A stretch of DNA of 64,000 nucleotides from positions 6,249 through 70,248 of the forward strand of contig JAWKQJ010000026.1 of the NCBI GenBank assembly GCA_041390205.1, in the 5' to 3' direction. A model generated the notes under the pieces. It had not been told where the DNA came from, ran no database searches, and saw nothing but the letters and a program-made list of their open reading frames with translations. This document shows, piece by piece, positions 1 to 23,061 of this stretch (its first letter is position 1; every line of letters begins with the position of its first letter). Source of the stretch: Gemmatimonadales bacterium. Its GTDB lineage: Bacteria > Gemmatimonadota > Gemmatimonadetes > Gemmatimonadales > GWC2-71-9. The position numbers and the translations under genes are program-made.

Positions 1-84
1 GGGCGCCGAGGAGCGGACCTCGGCGACGCCGCACGCCGCAAGGCGCGAAGCGGGTCCCATCGACTCTCTCACCCCAGAATCGAC

Positions 85-1892: not shown

Positions 1893-3485
1893 CTAGGGCA
1901 CCGGCCGCGCGGACGGCCGCGGCATCATCTCCTCGCGGTTGGCGAGGCTGTAGATCGTGAACGCCACCACCGCGGCCGCCTGCTTCAGGTCGTCGATCAC
2001 CAGGTTCTCGTAGGTGTCGAGATTCGAGTGGTGGGTGCGGGTGCCGTACTCGATCGGGTCCTGGATGAAGTTGAAGCCCGGCACGCCCGCCGCAACGAAG
2101 GCCAGGTGGTCGGTGCCACCGGTGTTGCCGTGCTTGACTCCGACGACGCCCAGATCCTGGAACGGGGCCAGGATCTGCTGGAAGATCGGAATCGCCGCCT
2201 GGTTGCTCTGATCCCAGATGCCGCGGAGCTTGCCGGTTCCGTTGTCCACGTTGAGATAGGCCGAGATCCGCGGCAACTCCGCTTCGTGCATCCGGATCCA
2301 GGTGCGCGACCCGAACAGGCCCTGCTCCTCGCCCGTCCAGAGCGCGATCCGCACGGTCCGGCGGAGCGGCAGGTCGAGGGTCTTGAGCAGCCGGATCGCC
2401 TCCATCATCACCACCGAGCCGGCGGCGTTGTCGGTGGCGCCGGTGCCCGAGTGCCAACTGTCGAAGTGGGCGCCGAGCATCACGACCTCGTCGGCCTTGT
2501 CGGTGCCCGGGATCTCCGCGGTGACGTTGGTCGGCACCCGGTCGTCGTCGAAGAAGCGGGTCTGGAGGTTGAGCTCGATCGAGACGGGCAAGCCGCGCTG
2601 CGCGACCCGGAAGAGCGTGCCGTACTGCTCCTGCGCCACCACCAGCTCGGGGATCGGATTGTAGACGCTGTCCCGCGCGGTCCGGCCGTCGGAGTGGCCG
2701 CCGTTCAGGAACATCCCGTAGCCCCAGCGGGACGGCAGCAGGATGGCGGCGACGCCCTCGCTCCTGAAGAGCGCCGAGATCGCCGGATTGAGCGCGCGGA
2801 GCCGGCGGAACATCGCGATCCGGTCTTCCTGACTCGGCCCGCCAGAGCGATCGGCGGCCTGGTAGGGCTGGCCCGGGACCATCGACACCATCGCCGGGCG
2901 CGGAATCGAGTCCTCGATCAGGGCGTCGAGCGCGAGGCGGCGCTCCTGTTGATCGAACTCGGGACCCAACTCCGGGGCCTCGCCCCGGAGCACGCAGGCG
3001 CCCGCGAGCTTGCCGCGGTACTTGGCCAGGTCGGCCTGGTCCTGCGCCTCGAAGACCACCACCGGGCAGGTGACGGTGGCCGGGCGGCCGCGGGCGTCGA
3101 GCGTGCTGCCGCTCCACGCCTGCGGGTAGGCGGCGAGCGGCTTGCTCCAGGGCTCCAGGATCCGGCCGCTGTACGAGACCACGTCCCAGCCCCGACCGAA
3201 CTCGTGGTCCCAGGCCTCCTGCTTGACGTTGGCGAGACCCCAGGAGGTGAAGGTCTCGGCGGCCCAGGCGTTGGCCTTCCGACTGCCGGGCGAGTTGGTG
3301 AGCCGTGCGCCGATCACGTCGGTCAGGTAGAGGGCGAGGTCGTCGAGCTTGCCGCGCTTCGTCTCCTCGTCGCGGATCCGCTGCGCCACCGAATAGTCGA
3401 CCTTCTCGGCGACGACCTGCGCCACGCCGGTCGTGGGCAGGCCGAAGAGGACGGCGAGCGCGAGCACAGCACGGAAGCGAGTCAT
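1893..3485 (-). CDS. M28 family metallopeptidase (carboxypeptidase Q-like)
   Basis: AHFDSW, GATDNAAG, GEEQG, TDH and HH motifs; signal peptide from MTRFRAVLAL (ATG at 3485). Confidence 0.9.
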   Translation of the reverse strand: MTRFRAVLALAVLFGLPTTGVAQVVAEKVDYSVAQRIRDEETKRGKLDDLALYLTDVIGARLTNSPGSRKANAWAAETFTSWGLANVKQEAWDHEFGRGWDVVSYSGRILEPWSKPLAAYPQAWSGSTLDARGRPATVTCPVVVFEAQDQADLAKYRGKLAGACVLRGEAPELGPEFDQQERRLALDALIEDSIPRPAMVSMVPGQPYQAADRSGGPSQEDRIAMFRRLRALNPAISALFRSEGVAAILLPSRWGYGMFLNGGHSDGRTARDSVYNPIPELVVAQEQYGTLFRVAQRGLPVSIELNLQTRFFDDDRVPTNVTAEIPGTDKADEVVMLGAHFDSWHSGTGATDNAAGSVVMMEAIRLLKTLDLPLRRTVRIALWTGEEQGLFGSRTWIRMHEAELPRISAYLNVDNGTGKLRGIWDQSNQAAIPIFQQILAPFQDLGVVGVKHGNTGGTDHLAFVAAGVPGFNFIQDPIEYGTRTHHSNLDTYENLVIDDLKQAAAVVAFTIYSLANREEMMPRPSARPVP

Positions 3486-3517
3486 GGTCTCAATCCTGTC
3501 TCGTGAGCGAATGACGG

Positions 3518-4921
3518 CTAGGGCCGCCGCTTGCCCGGGAACGATCCCCCACCCTGCTTGAAGGTGAGCCCCGTGGCCCGATCGCCCTCGACCGTGAAGA
3601 CGATCCGGATCGCGTCGGTCAAGGGCATCCCGAAGGTATGGTTGCCATACGGCAGGAGCTCGAACGAAGTGCCGCCGCCGATCTCGAGCTTGCCGAACAG
3701 GAGGCCGTCGTCCTCGGTCACGCTGAAGCGACGGGCGGCGCCCGGCATCTCGATGTCGTACTCCCCGACGTAGCGCGCCCGCTCGGCCGCGCTCAGGGCG
3801 ACCCGCTTCGGCGGCTGCGCCAGCGGCAGGCCCAACGCGGCCCGCGCCACCTGCCGCATCAGGTTGCCGGGGTTGCCGGCGCCGGTGTTGGTGAGCACGG
3901 TGACCGAGGTCCGAGACTCCGGGAACCAGGCGTTCTCGGAGAGGAAGCCGCTGATCCCGCCGTTGTGGGCGATCATGGTCTTCCCGCCCAGGGTGTCGCG
4001 GGCCAGGGCGAAGCCATACTGGAGCGGGCCTTTCGCCGCGGCGCCCTCTGGAGTGGTCATCGCGGTGTACGACTTGGCGCTCACGACCTTGCCGCCGTGC
4101 AGCAGGTTGTTCCACCGGGCCAGGTCTCCAACCGTCGCGCACAGGGCGCCAGCCGCGTAGGGCTGGGACATGGCGAGGAACGCGGCGTTCTTGAAGCCCC
4201 TGCCGTCGGGCGAATAGCCGTGCGCGCGGCGGGGGATGATCGGGGAGACGTCGCACCACCGGGTGTCCGGCAGCCCCAGCGGCTCGGAGAACCGGGCGAC
4301 CACGTCCTCCGCCCAGGTCCGGCCGGTCACCTTCTCGATCAGCATGCCCAGCACCACGTAGCCGCTGTTGTTGTAGCTCCACTTGGTGCCCGGCTCGAAG
4401 TCCATCGGCTTCGAGGCGGTGAGCGCCACCAGGGTGTCGGGCGACATCTCCTCGCCCCACCGCCGGATCCAGCTGGGGCCGAGCGCGGTGTAGCTCGGAA
4501 TGCCCGAGGTGTGATTGAGGAGCTGTCGGACCGTGACCGGTTTCCAGGCCGCCGGCAAGGACGGGAGATAGGTCCCGATCGCCTCGTCGAGCTCGACCCG
4601 ACCGCGCTCGACCTCCTGCATCACGGCCGTGCTGGTGAATTGCTTGGTGACCGAGCCGATCTGATAGACGGTGGCCGCCGTCGCCGGAACCTGGTTCTCG
4701 AGGTCGGCGAAGCCCCAGCCGCCCGTGACCAGCGTGTCGCCCCCGCGGGTGACCGCGATCGAGACCGCGGGCGAGCCCCGGTCGGCGATCCAGGCCTTGG
4801 CGAGCGAGTCCACCCGGGCGGCGACGACCGCGGCGGGTGGGTACGACTGGGCGGCGGCCGCCAGCGCACCGAAGAGGAGCAAAGGGGCGAGGGCGGCGGC
4901 GACTCGGCGGCGGTACGGCAT
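3518..4921 (-). CDS. Serine hydrolase, beta-lactamase/AmpC-like family, with C-terminal extra domain
   Basis: SxxK (SVTK), YxN (YNN), HNG and LLNHTSG motifs, signal peptide. Confidence 0.9.
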   Translation of the reverse strand: MPYRRRVAAALAPLLLFGALAAAAQSYPPAAVVAARVDSLAKAWIADRGSPAVSIAVTRGGDTLVTGGWGFADLENQVPATAATVYQIGSVTKQFTSTAVMQEVERGRVELDEAIGTYLPSLPAAWKPVTVRQLLNHTSGIPSYTALGPSWIRRWGEEMSPDTLVALTASKPMDFEPGTKWSYNNSGYVVLGMLIEKVTGRTWAEDVVARFSEPLGLPDTRWCDVSPIIPRRAHGYSPDGRGFKNAAFLAMSQPYAAGALCATVGDLARWNNLLHGGKVVSAKSYTAMTTPEGAAAKGPLQYGFALARDTLGGKTMIAHNGGISGFLSENAWFPESRTSVTVLTNTGAGNPGNLMRQVARAALGLPLAQPPKRVALSAAERARYVGEYDIEMPGAARRFSVTEDDGLLFGKLEIGGGTSFELLPYGNHTFGMPLTDAIRIVFTVEGDRATGLTFKQGGGSFPGKRRP

Positions 4922-5058
4922 CGGAAGGCTCCTGGCTGGTCGCGGGAAGGTAGTCTGGCGGATTGGCGGCCGCGAGCGACCACCGGACCCGGTCCGCCCG
5001 GGCCCGCCGGCGACACCTTACGGGAACATCCCGCGGAGGATTCGACGGCCGGTCGGAG

Positions 5059-5772
5059 TCACTCGAGAATCGCGAAGATCGCAAAGCTGGTGAGCAACAC
5101 CATCGCCAGCACCACCATCGCGACGAGGCCGGCGAAGAGCCGCCCCATCGCCCGGTACTTCTGCTGGATCAGGACCGAGAGCCGGTGGATGATGACCACG
5201 GCCTCCGCGTTCAGCTCCGCCAGCCGGACCTCGCCCCAGGCGCGCCGATAGGCCTCCGGCTGGTAGAGGGCGATCGTCTCCCAGTAGAGCAGTCCGCGCG
5301 GCTCGTGCTCCTGCGACGGCTCCAGCCGGTGGAGCTGCCGCGGCCGGATGCAGTCGATCGCGTAGAGCACGAAGACGAAGGTGAGGGTGGCGTAGATCAC
5401 CAGGAAGCCGATCAGCCACGGCTTGACCCCTACCGGCAGCTCGGCGAAGTAGTGGCCGCGCGCGAGGATGAAGAACACCGCGGCGTTGAGGGCGCCGAGA
5501 ATGATCAGCGCGTAGCGCGCCTTGTGGTCGGCGAGGTCGATGACCTGCCGCGCTTCCTTGGCGACCTCGATCAGCATCCGCCAACGCTCGAAGCTGGTCG
5601 GCGGGCGCGAGGCGTCTCGCAGCTGCCGGGCCTGGCGCTTCTTGACCCTGCGGCGGGCCTTGTCGCCAAGGTCGTCCGAAAGCGGCTTCGGGAGCGGGGC
5701 GCCGCCGAGCACGGCCTGCATGGTCTCGCTGAGCTCCGGCGCTCGCTCGATGCTCTCGACAGTGGTCGTCAT
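5059..5772 (-). CDS. DUF5706 / Pycsar-effector-like transmembrane protein
   Basis: ADHKA before TM1, two TM helices then RP, LLYW, and KY before the last TM, matching the PycTM/DUF5706 pattern; ATG at 5772 after GGAGG. Confidence 0.7.
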   Translation of the reverse strand: MTTTVESIERAPELSETMQAVLGGAPLPKPLSDDLGDKARRRVKKRQARQLRDASRPPTSFERWRMLIEVAKEARQVIDLADHKARYALIILGALNAAVFFILARGHYFAELPVGVKPWLIGFLVIYATLTFVFVLYAIDCIRPRQLHRLEPSQEHEPRGLLYWETIALYQPEAYRRAWGEVRLAELNAEAVVIIHRLSVLIQQKYRAMGRLFAGLVAMVVLAMVLLTSFAIFAILE

Positions 5773-6419: not shown

Positions 6420-7115
6420 TCAGCGCCAGACCGCGATCTCGTCGAGCGGCTTCCGCTCGAGGTTCGGCACCCGGGCGTCGGGCGCGGGGTAGCCGACCGG
6501 CATCACCAGCATCGCCTTCTCGTTGGCGGGCCGGCCGAGCACCTCGGCCAGGAAGCCCATCGGGTTGGGCGTGTGGGTCAGGGTGACCAGGCCCATCATG
6601 TGGATCGCGGCGATGAAGAACCCGGCGGCGATGCCGCAGGACTCCTGGGTGTAGTAATAGGTCCGCTTGGAGCCGTCGGGCCGATAGCCGTGCGCCTGGC
6701 GGAAGAGCACCACCACCCAGGGCGCGTCGGTCAGGTGGGACTTGACCTCGTCGGTGCCGAGCGGGGCGAGCGCCTCGAGCCACTCGGCGGGCGCGCGGCC
6801 GTGATAGAACTCGTGCTCCTCCGTCTCGGCCGCCTCGCGGATCCGCCGCTTGAGCTCGGGATCGGAGACGGCGACGAAGGTCCAGGGCTGCTGGTGGGCT
6901 CCGCTCGGCGCCGTGCCGGCCGTGCGGATGGCCCACTCGATCAGCGCCCGATCGACCGGGTCGGTGGCGAAGTGGCGGGTGGTCCGCCGCCGGTTCATCT
7001 CGTCGTGGAAGGCCCGGGCCCGCGCGAGCGAGTCCGCCGGGTCATGCCGCACGAACTCGAGGGGCACGAACGGCAGTGATCGGGCGGCGAATTCCCTGCT
7101 GACGGCGTCGTCCAC
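6420..7115 (-). CDS. iyd: Iodotyrosine deiodinase (IYD)-type nitroreductase-family flavoprotein
   Basis: RRTTRHF, TAPSGAHQQPW, active-site lid EEHEFY...LAPLGTD..K.HL, YYTQES, LTHTP; GTG start after GGAGG. Confidence 0.85.
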   Translation of the reverse strand: MDDAVSREFAARSLPFVPLEFVRHDPADSLARARAFHDEMNRRRTTRHFATDPVDRALIEWAIRTAGTAPSGAHQQPWTFVAVSDPELKRRIREAAETEEHEFYHGRAPAEWLEALAPLGTDEVKSHLTDAPWVVVLFRQAHGYRPDGSKRTYYYTQESCGIAAGFFIAAIHMMGLVTLTHTPNPMGFLAEVLGRPANEKAMLVMPVGYPAPDARVPNLERKPLDEIAVWR

Positions 7116-7323
7116 CGGTTCCTCCCTGCTCGAGTCGAGGCGGCGGAGCCCTGCTGCTGCCCCGCTCCCATGTGCGATCGCTCTCGGTGCGTGGTCGTGG
7201 TCACCTAACGTCGTCCCGGCGCTCCAGGCCCGGGCGACGGGCGCGGCCGGCAATGTATCGCGGGCGACCGGGACCCCACCAGGCGGTCTGGCTCGCGACC
7301 CGCTCCGGTGATATGGTTCCGCC

Positions 7324-9081
7324 GTGGAGCCCCGCCCCCTCGGCCAGACGATCGTCACCGTGGCGTTCTTCGCCACCATCGGGCTCGCCGTTCTGCTCGA
7401 CCGCCGCCCCGACCCGGCTCCGACGGACGCGGAGCACCCCGGCTTCGCGTTCACCGAGGTGAGCGAGGCCACCGGAATCCGTTTCACCCATCGCGCCGCC
7501 CGCTTCGATCCGAAGCTCGCCAACGTCGAGCCGCACGTGGCCGCCGTCGGCGCCGCGGTGTCCGTGAGCGACGTCGACGGCGACGGCTGGGTCGACCTCT
7601 ACTTCTCGAACAGCCGGCTCGGCGAAGCGAACGCGCTCTTTCTGAACCGGGGCGACGGCCACTTCGAGGACGTGGCGGCCGCGGCCGGGGTGGCGCTGGC
7701 GAGCACGCCCGAGCGCGGCGCCTCGATGGGGAGTGTCTGGGGCGACTACGACAACGACGGCCGCGAGGACCTCCTGGTCTACCGCTACGGCTATCTCGAG
7801 CTCTATCGCAACGCCGGCGGGCTCCGCTTCGAGCGGGTGACCGCGAGCGCGGGACTCGACCGCTGGATCAACAGCAACGGCGCGATCTGGGTCGACTACG
7901 ACCGCGACGGTTTCCTCGACCTCTACGTGACCGCGTACTTCCGCCCCGAGGTGAATCTCTGGGCCGTCCAGTCCACCCGGATCATGCACGACAGCTTCGA
8001 GTTCTCCTCGAACGGCGGCGCCAACGTGCTCTTCCGGAACCGGGGCGACGGCACCTTCGAGGACGTCACCGCCCGGATGGGCGTCGGCAGCACCCGCTGG
8101 ACCCTGGCCGCGGCCGCCGCGGACTTCGACGGAAACGGCTGGCCCGACCTCTATCTCGCGAACGACTACGGACCGGAGGAGCTCTTCCTCAACCAGCAGG
8201 GCCGGGGGTTCGTCCTGGCCCGTGCCGGCCTCGAGTCCAGCTCCAAGAGCGGCATGGCCGTGGCGCTCGGCGACATCTACAACCGCGGGCGGCTCGACGT
8301 CTTCGTCACCAACATCTCGGAGAAGGGCTACCTCTTCCAGAACAACAACCTGCGGCTCAACCTCCTGGACGAGGCGGGTCGGTTCGAGAACCTGGCGGAG
8401 GGTGTGGTGGCGGACGCCGGCTGGGCCTGGGGCTCGCAGTTCGGCGACTTCAACAACGACGGCTTCGTCGACCTGTTCGTCGCCAACGGCTTCATCTCGG
8501 CGGACCGCGACCGGAGCTACTGGTACGACATGTCGAAGATCGCGGGCGCGAACCGCCACATCTTCGAGGACGCGGCCAACTGGCCACCGTTCGGAAACGC
8601 GAGCCTGTCGGGCTACGAGCGCTCGCGCGTGCTGCTCAACCGGCGGGGTCAGGGCTGGGCGGACGTCGCCGAGCGGGTCGGGGTGCGGGACCTCTACGAC
8701 GGCCGGGCGGTGGCGCTCGCCGACCTCTTCAACGACGGCAGCCTCGCCGTGATCGTCGCCAACCAGAATCAGCCGGCGACCGTCTATCGCGGCGCGGCCG
8801 ATCCGGCCAACCACTGGATCGCCTTCGCGCTCGAGGGCACCGCGAGCAATCGGAGCGCGATCGGCGCCGAAGTGATCGCCAGCTACGGCGGCGCGCGACA
8901 GCGCCGGGTAGTCGACGGCGGAATGGGCTTCGCCAGCCAGAACGATCGCCGGGTCCACTTCGGTCTCGGGCAGGCCGGCTGGGTGGAACGGGTCGAGGTC
9001 CGCTGGCCGTCGGGTCGAATCCAAACCCTCGCCTTCCCCCGAATCGATCGTCTCCATCGGCTGATCGAGCCGGGGTCCTGA
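7324..9081 (+). CDS. CRTAC1 / ASPIC-UnbV family FG-GAP beta-propeller protein
   Basis: Repeated DxDxDGxxD Ca-binding loops, C-terminal NRSAIGA...GGMGFASQN..VHFGLG...VRWPSG (ASPIC/UnbV), N-terminal anchor. Confidence 0.9.
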   Translation: MEPRPLGQTIVTVAFFATIGLAVLLDRRPDPAPTDAEHPGFAFTEVSEATGIRFTHRAARFDPKLANVEPHVAAVGAAVSVSDVDGDGWVDLYFSNSRLGEANALFLNRGDGHFEDVAAAAGVALASTPERGASMGSVWGDYDNDGREDLLVYRYGYLELYRNAGGLRFERVTASAGLDRWINSNGAIWVDYDRDGFLDLYVTAYFRPEVNLWAVQSTRIMHDSFEFSSNGGANVLFRNRGDGTFEDVTARMGVGSTRWTLAAAAADFDGNGWPDLYLANDYGPEELFLNQQGRGFVLARAGLESSSKSGMAVALGDIYNRGRLDVFVTNISEKGYLFQNNNLRLNLLDEAGRFENLAEGVVADAGWAWGSQFGDFNNDGFVDLFVANGFISADRDRSYWYDMSKIAGANRHIFEDAANWPPFGNASLSGYERSRVLLNRRGQGWADVAERVGVRDLYDGRAVALADLFNDGSLAVIVANQNQPATVYRGAADPANHWIAFALEGTASNRSAIGAEVIASYGGARQRRVVDGGMGFASQNDRRVHFGLGQAGWVERVEVRWPSGRIQTLAFPRIDRLHRLIEPGS

Positions 9082-9153: not shown

Positions 9154-10026
<873 letters not shown>

Positions 10027-10033
10027 GCCGAGC

Positions 10034-11617
10034 CTAACGTCCGTCGATCCGTGGCAGCAGCCGGTCCAGCTCGTCGCGGTCGAGGCCGAGGAGCTCGTGC
10101 CGGTCGATCAGCTCCAGATTGTCGATCGGATAGAGGTTCCCCCGCGCGGGGTCCGCCAGCCCGGCGAGGTTCCGCGGCTCGATCGTCTCCCGCACCCAGG
10201 CCTCGAACCCAGCCGCGGCCCCCTCCCGGTCGGCCCCTCGGGCCGCAGCCGCCCGCCGCACCCGGCGGAGCGACTCGGCCACCGCGCCGCGGAGCACCGC
10301 GTCGTCCGCGCCGAGAAAGCCGCTCCAGGCCGGATCGGCCGTCAGACCGAGACGCTGCCGGATCTCGGCCCACGACACCGCCGCGAAATAGAGCTGCGCC
10401 TGCGCCGCGAAGAGCCGGAACCGGCCGAGCGCCGAGTAGGCGCCGGCGATCAGCCGATCGATCTGGTCGGCCTCGGCGTTGAGCAGACGATCGTAGGCGC
10501 GGAGTCTCGCGCCCGAGGGGTGGGAACGCGGACCCTCCTCGAACAGTCCCGCCAGACGCTCGACCCCGATCAGCGACCAGGCGATTCCGGTGGAGAAGAG
10601 CGGATCGACGAAGGCGAAGGTGTGGGGCAGCACCGCCCAGTGCTGGCCGGTGGCTCGGGTGAGCCGGTGTTGCACCCGCGGGCGGTACTCGACGGGTCGG
10701 ACGGCCTTGGCGTCGCCGAACTGGAGCGCGAGGCTCGGGAGCCGGAGCAGCAGACTGGCCCAGGCCGTCTCCGGATCGCGGGCCGCGAGCGCCGACACGG
10801 CCCGATGCCGCGGCACCGGCGCGAGCAGCGCGCCCGCGCTCGTCAGTCCGTCGTCGAAGCGGAGCGAGTAGCACCAGCCACCCGCGAAGAGGTGGTGCAC
10901 GGCGGCCCACTCGTCCGGATAGGGGCCTGGGACGAACGGCGCGTCCACCACGTGGGCCAGCTCGCGCACCCCGCGGAAATGTCCGAAGAGGAGCGCCGAG
11001 CGGGTGCGGAGCCGGCGGAGCGCCGACGGAATCGGGATCTCCCGGGCCAGGAATCCGGCCGGACCGGAGGCGTCGACGACGAAGCGCGCCCGAATCTCGA
11101 GCGCCTCGCCGTCGCGGGCCCCGACGAGGCGGACGCCGTCGGGCTCGCTCCGAGCCTCGCGGAGGGTGACCCGGTCCCGGTAGTCGGCGCCGGCGGCGAC
11201 GGCCTGGCGGACGAAATGATGATCGACGTCCGCGCGGAGCCAATGGGTGTCGGCCACGCTGGCGCGGGGGTTTGCCGCCACCAGCATCCGGCTCGCCGGG
11301 GACGGCCGATAGGGCTGGTCCAGCTCGTGGTGATAGAAGGTGAATCCGCGCTTCAGCCCGCAGCGGAGCTCCGGATGGCACCGCTTCCAGCGGCCGTGGG
11401 TGGCCAGCTGGTGCAGGTCCTCGAAGCCGTAGCGGCTGGCCAGGCGCTCGAGCGCCAGGTTGGCAAGCGGCGTGCTCGACTCGCCCAGCGCGAAGCGCGG
11501 ATGGGATCCCTTCTCGAGCAGCACGACGTCGACGCCCCTGGCCGCGAGGATCCGCGCGAGCAGCGAGCCCGCGAACCCCGCGCCCACGATCGCGACCTGG
11601 CGACGCTCAGCCGCCAT
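10034..11617 (-). CDS. FAD-dependent halogenase, PrnC/tetracycline-halogenase-like
   Basis: GAGFAG, HPRFALGESS, GLKRGF (catalytic Lys position), HHLFAGGWCYSLRF, FVDPLFSTG; ATG at 11617. Confidence 0.8.
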   Translation of the reverse strand: MAAERRQVAIVGAGFAGSLLARILAARGVDVVLLEKGSHPRFALGESSTPLANLALERLASRYGFEDLHQLATHGRWKRCHPELRCGLKRGFTFYHHELDQPYRPSPASRMLVAANPRASVADTHWLRADVDHHFVRQAVAAGADYRDRVTLREARSEPDGVRLVGARDGEALEIRARFVVDASGPAGFLAREIPIPSALRRLRTRSALLFGHFRGVRELAHVVDAPFVPGPYPDEWAAVHHLFAGGWCYSLRFDDGLTSAGALLAPVPRHRAVSALAARDPETAWASLLLRLPSLALQFGDAKAVRPVEYRPRVQHRLTRATGQHWAVLPHTFAFVDPLFSTGIAWSLIGVERLAGLFEEGPRSHPSGARLRAYDRLLNAEADQIDRLIAGAYSALGRFRLFAAQAQLYFAAVSWAEIRQRLGLTADPAWSGFLGADDAVLRGAVAESLRRVRRAAAARGADREGAAAGFEAWVRETIEPRNLAGLADPARGNLYPIDNLELIDRHELLGLDRDELDRLLPRIDGR

Positions 11618-12579
11618 CGGTGCCGCAGCGGGGGCAGAAGATCCGCGGCGCCCGCACTCCGCCCAGGTTCCAGACCCGCAGCCGCTCGACCGCGCGGGGC
11701 CGCACTCGGGACAGGTCGCGATCCGATCGGCGTCCCAGAGATCCGCGGTGACCACGGCGTGCTCGCCAGCGGGCGCGGCGTCGATCACGACCTCGAGCTC
11801 GGTCAGGTGGGCGGTCGCCAGGCGCCCTCCGCGCGGAGGCGATCCAGCTCCCCGTTGCCGTCGCGCACCGGAATCACCGAGACCACCGCCGCGCCGGCGG
11901 CCACCGCATGCTCGACCGAGCGAATGGTCCACTCGACGGATTCGGCCTCCGGGATCCCAGGCACGCCGAGCAGCACGAACGCGCGCAGATCGAGATCCGC
12001 GGCGCGGAGCGTCGCCGCGGCGCGGTCGAAGTCGTCCAGCGTCATCCGCTTGTTGAGCCCGGCCAGCGCGGCGGGATGAACGGTCTCCAACCCCACCGCC
12101 ACCTCGAGCTGCCCCGCGAGCCGGTCGGCGAAGCGGCGGCAGGCCGGCCCGACCAACCGCGCGTGGGTCTCGACGGTGACGGCGGCGCCGCCCGCCAGCT
12201 CGGCGAGCCAGGCGTGATCCTCCGGCGGCACCGCGCGGCGGTCGAAGAAGTTGCTGGCGTTGTAGAGCTTGATCCGATCGGGCAGCGGCCCGGTGTGCCG
12301 GCGCTCCTCCAGCGCGAGGTCGAGCTGGCCGGGCAACGCGCCGGGCGGCGTCGGCCCGTCGAGCGTCTGCCGCCAGAGATCGCAGAAGCTGCAGGTGAAC
12401 GGGCACTCGGCCCCGGCCAGGAAGACCGTGAGCGCGCGCTCGATCCTGCCGCCGGGCCGGCGCTCGGGCTCGAGCTGGCTCCCCAACGGCCGGCGGGCGC
12501 CGATCGCCACCTTGGCCGGACGGAGCGCTCGAATCCGGCGATCGGCCTCGGCCGGGCCGGGGCCGACGGCGGCTTTCAT
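11607..12579 (-). CDS. Radical SAM protein, RaSEA/TIGR01210-like; two single-base frameshifts (~11806, ~11691), probably sequencing errors
   Basis: CPFTCSFC, IKLYNASNFFD, LEVAVGLET, LNKR; adding one base at each site restores ...PPTLTELE...CPEC...RVERLRVWNL...CPRC stop. Confidence 0.85.
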
Positions 12580-12587
12580 CGGGTCCT

Positions 12588-13913
12588 TCAGGCCCCGGCG
12601 AAGAGCGACTGGAAGTGCCGGCGGTAGCGGGGCTCGTCCTGGAACAGCCGCGCCGCGCGATCCGGCGCGGTGGAGCCGTCCTGGAACCGGCGCTTGGGAA
12701 AGACCGGCATCTCGAGACCGAGCACCGCGCGAACCCCGGCCGCCACGATCTCGCCCTTCAACGCGTAGAGCCGGGCCGTGCTGCCCTCGGTCATCGCCTT
12801 GAACGGGATCGCCTCGGCCACCGCGATCACCGCCGGTCGGGTGTAGGGACTGAAGCCCTCGAAGCCAAGCCGCCGGGCGCAGGCATAGGTCCGAACGCAG
12901 CCCCGGCTCAGCCCGCCGCTGTAGACCGCGGAGTGCTTGAGCGACTCGACGCCCCACCCTTCCTGGTAGAGCATCCGGTTGTTGACCACGCTCCGGATGG
13001 TGAGCTCGGCGTTCTCCTCGATCGGATAGTCCTTCAGGTTCTCGTCGCCGCCGTCGCCGTCGACCAGCAAGCGCCAGGTCGGGTAGCGGCGCCGGAGCTC
13101 GGTCAACAAGGCGAGGTTGGCCGCGGCGCAATCGACGTCGAGTGGTTTGTAGTCTTCGATCACCGCGATCGCGGCGAGCGGGTCGACCCGATCGGCCGGC
13201 ACCTCGATCGCCTCGCCGAGGAGCTCGAGACCGGTCTCCCGGAGGAAGCGGACCGCCTGATCGGCGTCCGCGCCGGCGCCGTCGACGGAGAGGGTGAACG
13301 CCTTGAGGCGTGCCGGGCTCTCCCCGCGATCGAGCAGCGCGCGATAGAGCGCGAGGAGCACCGCGCCGCTGTCGATCCCGCCGGAGAACGGCACCCCGAT
13401 CGGCGCCGCGCGATCCTGACGCTCGAGCCAGCGGACGATCTCGTGATAGAGCGCCGAGACGTAGCGCTCGCCGATGGTCGCCGGATCCGGCGGCAGCGTC
13501 TCGCGGGGCGGATCGAAGAACCGGCGATGGACCGGGCTCGGATCAGGACAGCCGACCAGACGGAGCGTGGTGACGTGATGCGCGGGGACCATGCGCGAGT
13601 AGCTGGGGTGGAACTGCGCGCCCCACCTCCGTCGCCCGAGCTCGGCCTGGAGCTCGTCGATCCGCTCGGCCACGATCAGCGCGGGGCCGGCGGCGTCCTT
13701 GGCGAGGAAATAGCGGAGCGGCCGATCGAGGCTCCGGGCGAGACAGACCCGATCGCCGTCCCGGGCCCAGAGCGCGAAGGAGCCGTCGATGCCGAGCACC
13801 CCGGTTGGATCGGCGTCGAGCAGGCGGCGCCTCGCCTCGTCGGGCGAGAGGTTCCAGATCCGCTGCGTGGCCGGGTCCACCAGATCGATGACCTGGGCGA
13901 TGGGATGCTGCAT
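12588..13913 (-). CDS. Asparagine-synthetase-like ATP-dependent amide ligase lacking the Cys1 glutaminase N-terminus
   Basis: PP-loop SGGIDS, GDGGDE, LK..V....G and KRRFQ motifs; partial GATase remnant GSFALW..LARS..PLRY; no N-terminal Cys. Confidence 0.85.
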   Translation of the reverse strand: MQHPIAQVIDLVDPATQRIWNLSPDEARRRLLDADPTGVLGIDGSFALWARDGDRVCLARSLDRPLRYFLAKDAAGPALIVAERIDELQAELGRRRWGAQFHPSYSRMVPAHHVTTLRLVGCPDPSPVHRRFFDPPRETLPPDPATIGERYVSALYHEIVRWLERQDRAAPIGVPFSGGIDSGAVLLALYRALLDRGESPARLKAFTLSVDGAGADADQAVRFLRETGLELLGEAIEVPADRVDPLAAIAVIEDYKPLDVDCAAANLALLTELRRRYPTWRLLVDGDGGDENLKDYPIEENAELTIRSVVNNRMLYQEGWGVESLKHSAVYSGGLSRGCVRTYACARRLGFEGFSPYTRPAVIAVAEAIPFKAMTEGSTARLYALKGEIVAAGVRAVLGLEMPVFPKRRFQDGSTAPDRAARLFQDEPRYRRHFQSLFAGA

Positions 13914-19586: not shown

Positions 19587-22260
19587 GTGCTGCGCGAATG
19601 GTGGGCCCGCCTCCGCGACTGGCTCCGGCGTGACCAGCTCGAGGTCGAGCTCGCCGAGGAGCTCGAGTTCCATCGCCGGCAGCTCGCCGCCGCGGCGAGC
19701 GACGCGGGACACGACGGAGAAGAGTCCCGCCGCCACGCGGCCGGGCGGCTCGGCAACCTGACTCGGATCAGAGACGACGCCCGCGCGCGGTGGTCGTGGC
19801 CCTGGCTCGACCACACCCTTCGCGACCTGCGCCACGCGCTCCGGAGTCTCCGCCGGTCGCCCGGCTTCACCGCGGCCGCCGTGCTCACCCTGGCGCTCGG
19901 GATCGGCGCCAACGCCGCGATGTTCGGCATCGTCGACCGGCTGATGCTGCGGCCGTTTCCGATGCTCCGGAACGCCGAGCGGGTCCATCGGGTCTACTTC
20001 CAGTACCGGAGCCGCGACACCGAGCGCACCAACACCTGGACCGAGTACACCCGGTACCTCGACCTCCAACGCTGGACCGGCTCCTTCGAGCGGTTCGCCG
20101 CCTTCTTTCCGACCGACCGCGCGGTCGGTCAGGGCGAGGCGGCGGTGGAGCGCCCGGTCGCCACGGTGAGCGCGAGCTACTTCGACTTCTTCGACGCGCC
20201 GCCCGCGCTCGGCCGCTATTTCACCGCCCAGGAGGACAGCATCCCGGTGGGCGCCGACGTGGTGGTCCTGAGCTACCCGTTCTGGCAGGCCGAATTCGGG
20301 GGCCGGAACGTGCTCGGCCAGACCCTGCTGGTGGGCACGATCCGGAGCACGATCATCGGGGTGACGCCGCCGGGCTTCGTCGGGGCAACGGAAGGGGCCG
20401 CTCCGGCGCTCTACTTCCCGATCACCACCTTCGGGGCGTCGATCAACCCGGACACCTACTTCCGCGACTACGAGTGGGGCTGGATGCAGATCATGGTCGC
20501 GCGCAAGCCGGGCGTCTCGCTCGAGGCCGCGTCGGCCGATCTGACCCAGGCCTTTCATCGGAGCTGGAACGCCGAGCGCGAGCTCGCCCCCGACCTGCCG
20601 GCGCTCGAGCTGGCGCAACCGCGGGCCCTGGCTGGGTCGATGAAGACGGCGGCGGGCCCGGCTCCCGAGCTCGAGGCGCAGACCCTCGTCTGGGTCCTCG
20701 GCGTGGCGGCGATCGTGCTGCTGATCGCCTGCGCCAACGTGGCCAACCTGCTGCTGGTCCGGGCGCTCCGGCGCCGGCGCGAGATCGCCCTCCGCCGCGC
20801 GCTCGGCGTGAGCCGGGCGCGGCTCGCGGCGCAGGCGCTCACCGAGAGTCTCTTGCTCGCGGGTTTCGGCTGCGGCGTGGGGCTGCTCCTGGCGCAATGG
20901 GGAATCTCGCTGCTCGGCCGCGAGGTGCTGGGCGCCGGCGCGGACCTCTCGCTCGGGACCGACTGGCGGACGATCGGGACGGCGGTCGTCGTCTCCCTCG
21001 TGGCCGCGGGCCTGACCGGTCTGGTGCCGGTGCTCTTCGGCGGGCGCGCCGACCTGGCCACGACCCTCAAGGCCGGCGCGCGCGAGGGCACCTATCAACG
21101 GTCGCGGGCGCGGTCGGCGTTGCTGGTGACCCAGGCGGCGCTCTCGGTGGTGCTGCTGGTGGGCGCCGGGCTCTTCGTCTCGAGCCTGACTCGGGTGCGC
21201 GACCTCCGCCTCGGCTACGACGCCGACCGGATCCTGGTGGCGACCGCAATCTGCGAGGGAACCCGACTCGAGCCCGCCGAGCTGGTGAGTCTCGGCGAGC
21301 GGCTGCTCGAGACGGCGGAGCGGGTTGCCCGGCGTCGAGGCGGCGACGCTCGCGAGCAGCGTCCCGTTCTGGAGCACCTCCAACTGCGCTCTTCGTGCCC
21401 GGGATCGACTCGGTCAGCTCCGGACGCTTCACCACCAGCTGGCCAGCGCCGACTATTTCGAGGCGACAGGCACCCGGATCCTCCGCGGCCGCCCCTTCGC
21501 GCCGGCCGATCACGACGGCGCGCCCGGCGTGGCGGTGGTGAGCGATGGCCTCGGTGCTCTGGCCCGGCGACGACGCGCTGGGCAAGTGCCTCCGCGTCGG
21601 GGCGGACACGGTGCCCTGCCACCGTGATCGGGATCGCGGAGGGCCGTCCAGAACAGTCTGACAGCAGCCGACCCGAAGCTCCGCTACTACGTCCCCCTCT
21701 CCCAGTTTCGTCCGACGCGCGGAGAGTTCATCCTGGTCCGCACGACGGGGTCGACCCGAGGATCTGGCGGATCAGGTGCGCTAGCCGCGCGCTGCAGCCC
21801 TTGATGCCCGGCAACGGCTGCGTCCATCTCACCGATGCGGGACTGATCAGCCACCAGCGGCGCTCCTGGCGAGTCGGAGCCGACGATGTTCGTCGGCCTC
21901 GGGTTCCTGGCGCTCCTGGTGGCGAGCATCGGGCTCTACGGCGCGATCGCCTTCACGGTGGCGCAGCGGCGTCACGAGCTGGCGGTGCGGGTGGCGATGG
22001 GCGCGCGTCCGCCGCATCTCCTCCGGCTGGTGCTGTTCCAGGGTCTGGGCTACGGGGTGGCCGGGGTGGCGATCGGAAGCGTCCTGGCGCTGCTCGCGGC
22101 CCGCTGGATCGAGCCCCTGCTCTTTCAGCAGTCGGCCACGGACGCGAGGGTGTTCGTCACGGTGGCGGCGGTGCTGCTCGGGGTGACGGTGGCGGCCAGC
22201 TCGTTCCCCGCCCGACGCGCGTCGCGCTCCGATCCGAACAGCGTGCTCCGCGCCGAGTGA
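19587..22260 (+). CDS. ADOP/MacB-like duplicated ABC permease; frameshifted between ~21.3 and 21.9 kb
   Basis: LALGIGANAAMF, LLIACANVANLLL, and C-terminal GLYG...QRRHELAVRVAMGA...LRAE in another frame. Confidence 0.85.
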
Positions 22261-22272
22261 GCGGGGCCGCGA

Positions 22273-23061
22273 TCAGGACACGGCCCGCCGCGAGAAGGTG
22301 CGGATCCCCAGCCGCAGGAACAGTCCGGTGAGCACGATCAGCGCGCCGACCACGGCGAGCAGCGGCATGTGCGGCAGCCCCGGCGTGAGCGCCCCCCGCA
22401 ACCCTTCCGCCACGTAGACCAGCGGATTGACCAGCACGGCGTACTGCATCACCGGCACCGCGGCGAGGCCGGACCACGGGTAGTACGCGCACCCGAAGAA
22501 GATCATCGGCGCCACGATGAAGCCGAAGAGCAGCCCGATCTGCTGGGGGTTGATCGCGGTGCCGAGCAGGAGGCCGAAGGCCGAGAAGGCGGTGGCGCCG
22601 AGCAGGGTGACGCCCACGATCTCGACGCCGTTGGCGAGCGAGATCCCGTCGATCGGCCCCATGATCAGCCTGGCGATCGGCAGCACGAAGAGCGCGGCGA
22701 TCACCCCCTGGACGATGCCCGAGATCACCTTGGCGTAGGCGACCACCTGGATCGGCGCCGGCGCGAGCAACCGATCCTCGATCTCGAAGGTCCAGCCGAA
22801 GTCGGCCACCATCGGCAGGGCGACCGCCTGCACGCTCGAAAAGGCCAGGCTGATCGCCAGAATGCCCGGCAGCAGCGCCGCGCCGTACCCCCGCTGGACG
22901 AATCCCATCTTGGGCAGCAGGTAGCCGAAGACGATCACGAACATCAGCGGCTGCAGCGTGGTCCGGAGCAGGAAGAAGGGCAGTTCCCGCATCGCGACGT
23001 GGAAGTCGCGGCGGAGGAGCGCCCGGAGCACCAGGCCGGTCGGGACGGCCCGGCCGCTCAC
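22273..23061 (-). CDS. ABC-2 type exporter permease
   Basis: Six TM helices, EDRLLAP, NPLVY; GTG start overlaps the ATPase stop. Confidence 0.88.
   Translation of the reverse strand: MSGRAVPTGLVLRALLRRDFHVAMRELPFFLLRTTLQPLMFVIVFGYLLPKMGFVQRGYGAALLPGILAISLAFSSVQAVALPMVADFGWTFEIEDRLLAPAPIQVVAYAKVISGIVQGVIAALFVLPIARLIMGPIDGISLANGVEIVGVTLLGATAFSAFGLLLGTAINPQQIGLLFGFIVAPMIFFGCAYYPWSGLAAVPVMQYAVLVNPLVYVAEGLRGALTPGLPHMPLLAVVGALIVLTGLFLRLGIRTFSRRAVS

Follow-up and report, generated by a model that had tools for sequence, protein, structure and literature searches.

Beta-lactam synthetase closes a ring within its own substrate and needs no donor, and the UnbV and UnbU genes belong to enediyne clusters. 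According to one study, ArcS transfers lysine to preQ0 and RaSEA converts the adduct, leaving the nitrogen of the removed lysine, and the two enzymes form a complex (PMC11298593). For the halogenase PltM, another study gives K87 as catalytic and a pocket lined by P48, E49, F90, L111, E115, W400, S404, and N405 (PMC6424973). Here, we describe a locus that shares features with each of these systems, located in a 64,000-nucleotide stretch of contig JAWKQJ010000026.1 from a Gemmatimonadales bacterium (the window). Its three genes, for a ligase, a radical S-adenosylmethionine (SAM) enzyme, and a halogenase-like flavoprotein, form a real, widespread, and uncharacterized module built from known folds, which likely builds a halogenated small molecule by chemistry of which we found no description. 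The module genes are as follows, with the ligase first, the radical SAM gene second, and the halogenase last:

12588 to 13913, minus strand: ATP-dependent ligase of the AsnB fold, 441 amino acids (ATG 13913, TGA 12590-12588).
11607 to 12579, minus strand: RaSEA-related radical SAM gene with a CX3CX2C motif and C-terminal cysteine pairs (ATG 12579, tail TGA 11609-11607).
10034 to 11617, minus strand: halogenase-like flavin-dependent enzyme of the PltM/CtcP type, 527 amino acids (ATG 11617, TAG 10036-10034).

Eight bases (12587-12580) separate the ligase from the radical SAM gene, and the radical SAM tail stop falls within the halogenase start, an overlap of 11 nucleotides. A first-pass annotation, made from the sequence alone, had described three tightly coupled minus-strand genes with this gap and overlap, and its description was borne out. 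It was also right to place the stop of a repaired radical SAM gene at 11607, within the halogenase start; its single read-through is here refined to a repair that needs two frameshifts (see below). Codon-position guanine-plus-cytosine (GC) content agrees with the reading frames assigned to the three genes. An Rfam scan of window positions 1-25000 gave zero matches, and a promoter and terminator scan gave none above chance. Among the sequencing runs listed as containing the locus, none was of RNA.

We compared 187 loci, which are genome and metagenome contigs selected for similarity to either the radical SAM enzyme or the ligase; they are rich in Gemmatimonadaceae and not independent, and one duplicate was removed. 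In 169 of the 170 loci that extend far enough, the gene immediately upstream of the radical SAM gene is the ligase; the radical SAM gene lies beside the ligase in 168 of 174 ligase loci, and the halogenase is next in order in 140 of 150. The same pattern holds genome by genome. Among Gemmatimonadota genomes (a total that includes the unpublished G384, G329, and G290 among the non-carriers), the radical SAM enzyme occurs in 21 of 251; the halogenase is found in 20 of these 21 and in none of the 230 negative genomes, and the missing case is a gene cut at a contig end. Among Acidobacteriota genomes, 18 of 201 have a radical SAM match at E < 1e-30. Co-conservation across genomes, on which the first-pass annotation had staked its proposal, thus held. 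The "trio" that it named does recur together, but the halogenase is an accessory and not a fixed third member: because some carriers of the ligase and the radical SAM enzyme are without a close halogenase orthologue, the core of the module is the ligase-radical SAM pair, with the halogenase as a frequent accessory. One genome, G480, has only a distant halogenase relative.

The nearest relatives of the module are Gemmatimonadota, by record titles, and the source genome is 73.7% complete. One radical SAM homologue, 66% identical, is from Gemmatirosa kalamazoonensis. Named carriers belong to Gemmatimonadota, Acidobacteriota, and one Deltaproteobacteria bin, and the Atlas clusters closest to the ligase are mainly from Acidobacteriota and Planctomycetota. 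The GC content of metagenome module loci spans 38-71%, and approximately 1500 matching stretches are estimated in the species collection. The module has no nonribosomal peptide synthetase, polyketide synthase (PKS), or obvious precursor. A literature search found the module described nowhere, with most subscription journals and all supplements outside its coverage and a mention in print possible. Two kinds of variant locus were also seen. Metagenome contigs L190, L192, L200, L203, and L210 carry the ligase without an adjacent radical SAM gene; these are contigs only and not whole genomes. In a divergent copy (L137:2215-7038, genome G056), the ligase gene is followed by an inserted toxin-antitoxin-like pair, then by a radical SAM gene that encodes an additional cysteine, and by an overlapping FG-GAP/ASPIC gene.

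The kinship of the radical SAM enzyme to RaSEA is seen in profiles, motifs, and trees. TIGR01210, on which archaeal-type RaSEA proteins score 306-388 bits, is the best NCBIfam family for every member scanned, including the protein of the window in its truncated form (60.6 bits; cut-off 212). TIGR01212 (YhcC-MnmL) gives at most 20.7 bits, and there is no ELP3 (TIGR01211) match. An hhalign comparison of the radical SAM profile with 15 RaSEA proteins gave a probability of 99.8 and an E of 1.4e-29 over 288 columns, and the motifs K-x-Y/F..S..F-x-D, VES, GLE, NK, and a C-terminal D...C..C are common to both. In a 43-row tree (IQ-TREE, LG+F+G4, with six YhcC rows and only one Elp3 row), the module enzymes form a clade (98.5/97) that is sister to RaSEA plus other RaSEA-like proteins (84.4/95), with joint support of 89.9/95; YhcC and Elp3 form a separate clade (94.4/98), and the module enzymes lie outside the RaSEA clade. 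A quick tree of 81 rows gave the same placement. The structure model (predicted local distance difference test [pLDDT] score of 95.5) matches HydE, queuine lyase, and BioB in a tie at Z 16-17, which is generic and non-discriminating. As judged from profiles and trees, the enzyme is homologous to RaSEA over its full length but is not RaSEA itself. The first-pass annotation had weighed clustering with RaSEA against clustering with Elp3/YhcC-type proteins, and the former was found; its label "RaSEA-like" is sound as to kinship, but the enzyme is only a sister group with a different cysteine motif and without two RaSEA-invariant motifs. As in the ArcS-RaSEA system, a radical SAM enzyme is paired with an enzyme that would join an amine to a substrate; the module differs in that the partner is an ATP-dependent AsnB-fold ligase instead of ArcS, in its accessory halogenase, and in its bacterial and patchy occurrence.

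Other RaSEA-like proteins point to further orphan pathways. Those of L230 (NZ_CP068720.1), L228 and L231 (Streptomyces plasmids), and L229 (a Clostridium acetobutylicum plasmid) score 173-198 bits on TIGR01210 for the three scanned, and their contexts are a fatty-acid/type II PKS cluster with asnB, an operon of P450, serine hydroxymethyltransferase, GT9, and carbamoyltransferase genes, or no partner at all. At L138:7375-9928 (G055), a RaSEA-like gene with CX8CX2C lies immediately upstream of an ATP-grasp-like gene, a possible second pairing of a ligase with a RaSEA-like enzyme.

The ligase matches Asn_synthase PF00733 alone in Pfam (3.7e-8, above cut-off) and scores 27.9 bits on TIGR01536, the glutamine-hydrolyzing AsnB family, whose cut-off is 267. 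It has no N-terminal Cys1 of the glutaminase kind, its first cysteine being residue 57, and its structure model (pLDDT 85.7, with 49 sequences in the alignment) overlays Escherichia coli AsnB only from AsnB residue 39, with the N-terminal Cys1 strand gone. Conserved motifs include the PP-loop (SGGIDS here, SGGxDS in 175 copies read), DGDGGDENLK, the K407 loop (K-x-R-F-Q), whose lysine we take to be the catalytic lysine of the AsnB fold, and a family-specific GCPDP with its cysteine in 173 of 174 copies. The model indicates that the ligase is an adenylating enzyme unable to split glutamine. With the glutaminase start missing, the amine would therefore come from ammonia, from a second substrate, or from within the substrate itself.

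Among solved folds, beta-lactam synthetase is the best match to the ligase (Z 25.2, rmsd 3.1, 358 residues aligned, about 20% identity); its entries score Z 23.9-25.2, followed by asparagine synthetases (22.8-23.4) and CarA (20.6-21.7). The ligase shares with these enzymes a two-domain fold over 355-386 residues, the PP-loop, and the conserved lysine loop, and it has the vestigial amidotransferase domain of beta-lactam synthetase and CarA; like beta-lactam synthetase, it cannot hydrolyze glutamine. In contrast, identity is 12-20%, nothing in the ligase corresponds to residues 1 to 30-43 of those chains, and its own invariant GCPDP and EGWG motifs set the ligase apart. A sequence search at E 1 gave the ligase no match to beta-lactam synthetase or CarA entries and thus no sign of orthology.

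The closest solved relatives (phmmer) of the flavoprotein, labeled PrnC-type in the first-pass annotation, are PltM (6.1e-43, 150 bits) and tetracycline 7-halogenase (6.5e-41). Its likeness to both extends to the GxGxxG motif (GAGFAG here, for flavin adenine dinucleotide), the catalytic lysine, F-x-D-P-L-F-S-x-G, several pocket residues, and a helical C-terminal region; it differs by WxYxL(R/P) in place of WxWxIP and by the ligase and radical SAM genes that accompany its own. K89, which aligns with PltM K87, is invariant in 30 of 30 sequences, and all 144 copies in which the pattern could be read have a lysine there. PltM pocket residues P48, F90, E115, and W400 align with P50, F92, D123, and Y410, and this alignment fits a small free aromatic substrate. 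At E49 and N405 of PltM the flavoprotein has L51 and S415, which suggests that its substrate is a small aromatic other than phloroglucinol.

The first-pass annotation overlooked a recurring set of partners, propeller proteins and an RnfD-like membrane protein, and three such genes lie beside this copy of the module:

7324 to 9081, plus strand: FG-GAP/ASPIC-UnbV propeller protein, 585 amino acids, convergent with the module (Pfam FG-GAP_3 and UnbV_ASPIC).
9154 to 10026, plus strand: RnfD/NqrB-like membrane protein, 290 amino acids (Pfam NQR2_RnfD_RnfE, 3.4e-12), which we take to be UnbU-like; its stop lies 7 bp from the halogenase stop.
1 to 72, minus strand: 5' tip of the frame of a large TPR/FG-GAP/ASPIC protein, whose gene is otherwise just outside the left edge of the window (G000:C26 2670-6320, 1216 amino acids).

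Genes of these kinds occur in 48 of 83 module loci of at least 12 kb, and an orthologue of the 7324-9081 propeller in 24 of these 83. In L010, L129, L132, L191, L195, L211, and L219, propeller genes are co-directional and tightly spaced with the module. At the level of genomes, the C-terminal domain of the large propeller protein is present in 19 of 21 module-positive Gemmatimonadota versus 37 of 230 others, and in 17 of 17 module-positive Acidobacteriota versus 63 of 181 others (counts that leave out the unpublished G068, G093, and G190). The module is thus nested within the propeller-positive genomes, of which it occupies 19 of 56 in Gemmatimonadota and 17 of 80 in Acidobacteriota. Because related genomes do not count as independent, p-values for this association would be overstated, and no conclusion depends solely on the unpublished genomes. 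By coordinates, module and domain gene lie within about 17 kb of each other in 15 of the 19 and 5 of the 17 genomes, respectively. As we read their N-termini, the propeller proteins may be exported. Of the Gemmatimonadota genomes, 17 of the 21 with the module and 16 of the 230 without it have the UnbU-like gene; we rejected this gene as an obligatory partner and regard it as accessory, since four of the 21 carriers, two of them single-contig genomes, are without it. An ASPIC-UnbV propeller beside an RnfD-like membrane protein recalls the UnbV/UnbU pair of enediyne clusters, but no enediyne PKS was seen in any module locus examined, and here the pair is accompanied by a TPR/FG-GAP protein whose C-terminal domain has no name. 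This domain (alignment A8) is about 420 residues long, is present in 56 of the 251 Gemmatimonadota and 83 of the 201 Acidobacteriota genomes, has the invariants S6-C7, E78, D83, W259-D260, R288-G289, and K378-D379, and gave zero Pfam, PDB, or named Atlas matches.

Our best reading of these observations, which we hold tentatively, is a scheme of nitrogen donation by attachment and cleavage, with optional halogenation and a product for the propeller system. Briefly, (i) the ligase would adenylate a carboxylate and couple it to the amine of an amino acid, with lysine as the predicted donor; (ii) the radical SAM enzyme would then cut the C-N bond of the donor amino acid, leaving a primary amide; (iii) where present, the accessory halogenase would halogenate an aromatic ring on the same small molecule; and (iv) the product would serve the TPR/FG-GAP/ASPIC propeller system. 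The reactions themselves, the identity of donor and substrate, and the connection of the product to the propellers are all inferred, whereas gene order, co-inheritance, the folds, the loss of the glutaminase start, the RaSEA kinship, the conserved halogenase lysine, and the nesting within propeller-positive genomes are established. A ligase without the glutaminase start would need an outside amine, and the scheme would explain why such a ligase is almost never found apart from a RaSEA relative. The first-pass annotation had proposed the same attach-then-cleave logic, which is partly supported; co-conservation, RaSEA kinship, and the lack of a glutaminase speak for it, and the sister-only kinship and the accessory status of the halogenase speak against it. 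A more specific version, in which the product is a halogenated cofactor or ligand with an amide group, made for the widespread family of exported beta-propeller proteins with nitrogen taken from lysine by radical C-N cleavage, is in our judgment a long shot. Pyrroloquinoline quinone has few producers and many users. A comparable minority of producers among users would explain the nesting of the module in propeller-positive genomes.

Several observations weigh against the attach-then-cleave scheme. The best fold match of the ligase, beta-lactam synthetase, argues against an amine donor, and a ligase without a glutaminase could simply use ammonia. Eight members of the radical SAM family score 52.6-107.4 bits on TIGR01210 (cut-off 212), their cluster motif is CX3CX2C where RaSEA has CX6-8CX2C, and K203 and RGxHN, invariant in 15 aligned RaSEA proteins, are absent. 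RaSEA-like proteins closer to RaSEA are found in fatty-acid/PKS or P450 clusters or alone; this RaSEA-like group has clearly spread to several pathways, and kinship to RaSEA therefore does not fix the chemistry. WxWxIP, which we take to be the canonical motif of flavin-dependent halogenases, is present in 0 of 136 copies (WxYxL(R/P) in 113, WxWxL(R/Q) in 23, with the first tryptophan invariant), which leaves hydroxylation open. Genome searches found no halogenase orthologue in G160, G044, and G056, which carry the ligase and the radical SAM enzyme, and in 6 of 174 loci the ligase is without a neighboring radical SAM gene. Lastly, module and propeller gene are unlinked in the complete genomes G437 and G041, and two module-positive draft genomes (G305 and G381) are missing the propeller domain.

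The alternative that survives best, although we consider it unlikely, is ring closure: the ligase would form a lactam within an amino-acid-derived substrate, as beta-lactam synthetase and CarA do, the radical SAM enzyme would make a C-C or C-heteroatom bond or a rearrangement, and the halogenase would decorate the ring. The order of fold matches, with beta-lactam synthetase ahead of asparagine synthetases and CarA, fits this route, as do the canonical CX3CX2C motif, the missing RaSEA motifs, and the tie among radical SAM folds. However, the lead over AsnB is less than 2 Z units at about 20% identity, beta-lactam pathway genes do not recur near the module, and a shared intermediate would better explain why the ligase is so nearly always paired with a RaSEA relative.

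It is improbable, in our view, that the trio instead matures a peptide or a protein-derived cofactor, possibly on the propellers themselves, with the flavoprotein as a hydroxylase of the QhpG/LodB kind or a peptide halogenase. QhpG is indeed the top NCBIfam match of the flavoprotein, at 53.5 bits, and the altered WxWxIP and the close genomic tie to propeller proteins would suit such a role. Against this, the QhpG cut-off is 240, the PltM match reaches 150 bits with the catalytic lysine and the pocket retained, no precursor family recurs among open reading frames (ORFs) of at least 80 amino acids near the module, and most propeller-positive genomes are without the module (37 of 56 and 63 of 80).

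A different doubt concerns this copy alone, namely that it is decaying, with a radical SAM gene that has truly become a pseudogene in the strain, although the family is functional elsewhere. As assembled, the ORF ends at 11803 after 258 amino acids, without the C-terminal cysteine motifs, and reading through requires frameshifts near 11806 and 11695; alignments to intact homologues follow frame -2 as far as 11806, then frame -1 until about 11690, and finally frame -3 until about 11622, and conserved protein sequence continues through the tail in these shifted frames. Contigs from two other studies, belonging to close relatives with about 97% (66 differences in 2054 bases) and about 92% (106 in 1403) similarity, carry an extra base at 11805/11806 and show two gaps each across the gene, the second of which is not displayed. 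Two further sequencing runs have depth at 11805/11806 and no listed insertion, which would favor a pseudogene, but this depth may stem from short matches that are unrelated. A second gene in the window, ABC-permease-like (19587-22331, plus strand), also changes frame, after about 21200. Because relatives carry the extra base and a second gene shifts frame, the frameshifts are likely assembly errors; the flanking ligase and halogenase genes are intact, and a full-length radical SAM match is present in 162 of 176 loci. A true pseudogene is thus a poor prospect. A long ORF at 1893-5084 (minus strand) resembles two genes fused across a frame change, a further sign of indel errors in this contig.

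Very unlikely is a modification of nucleosides, in which the pair would act like ArcS and RaSEA on a base of tRNA or DNA, such as a 7-deazapurine, and the base would be halogenated: the RaSEA kinship, queuine lyase among the tied folds, and QueC in the source genome favor it, but the ArcS domain (PF17884), detected in three control archaea, is absent from the source genome (G000) and five other carriers, the ligase has no RNA-binding domain in a Pfam scan, no que, tgt, or dpd family recurs near the module, viral contigs hold no relative, and just 21 of 251 and 18 of 201 genomes have the module.

Other neighbors were considered as parts of the module and rejected, including the following gene:

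6423 to 7118, minus strand: iodotyrosine deiodinase homologue (5.7e-70 to PDB 5ko7), divergent from the UnbV-like gene.

It is present in 7 of 21 carriers versus 112 of 230 non-carriers (p 0.25) and only 4 of 187 other loci have it close to the module; these four have common surroundings and amount to about one event. Recurrence of DedA-rhodanese, SusC/SusD, GH97, GMC oxidoreductase, MFS, and multiheme cytochrome neighbors is limited to lineages. In Gemmatimonadaceae loci such as L018, L022, L042, and L048, the module often lies within a SusC/SusD locus together with GH97, multiheme cytochromes, a set of GMC oxidoreductase, gluconate dehydrogenase subunit 3, and 3-keto-disaccharide hydrolase genes, and three recurring, very small ORFs (80-99 amino acids) that match nothing in Pfam. 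A phage or defense role was rejected, as viral contigs hold no module relative and PADLOC matched 0 of 6 proteins. A plasmid search gave no module match.

Among poorly cultured bacteria of soil and water the module is common, and it offers a direct test of whether radical C-N cleavage of the RaSEA type delivers nitrogen generally, beyond archaeal tRNA. It also adds a new subfamily of halogenases with a distinct pocket, and it gives access to the function of the ASPIC/UnbV propeller proteins, which are abundant but unexplained. If the product is indeed a cofactor or ligand for the propellers, ArcS-RaSEA logic would for the first time be seen at work in bacteria and on a small molecule, and the TPR/FG-GAP/ASPIC-UnbV-UnbU system would gain its first functional handle.

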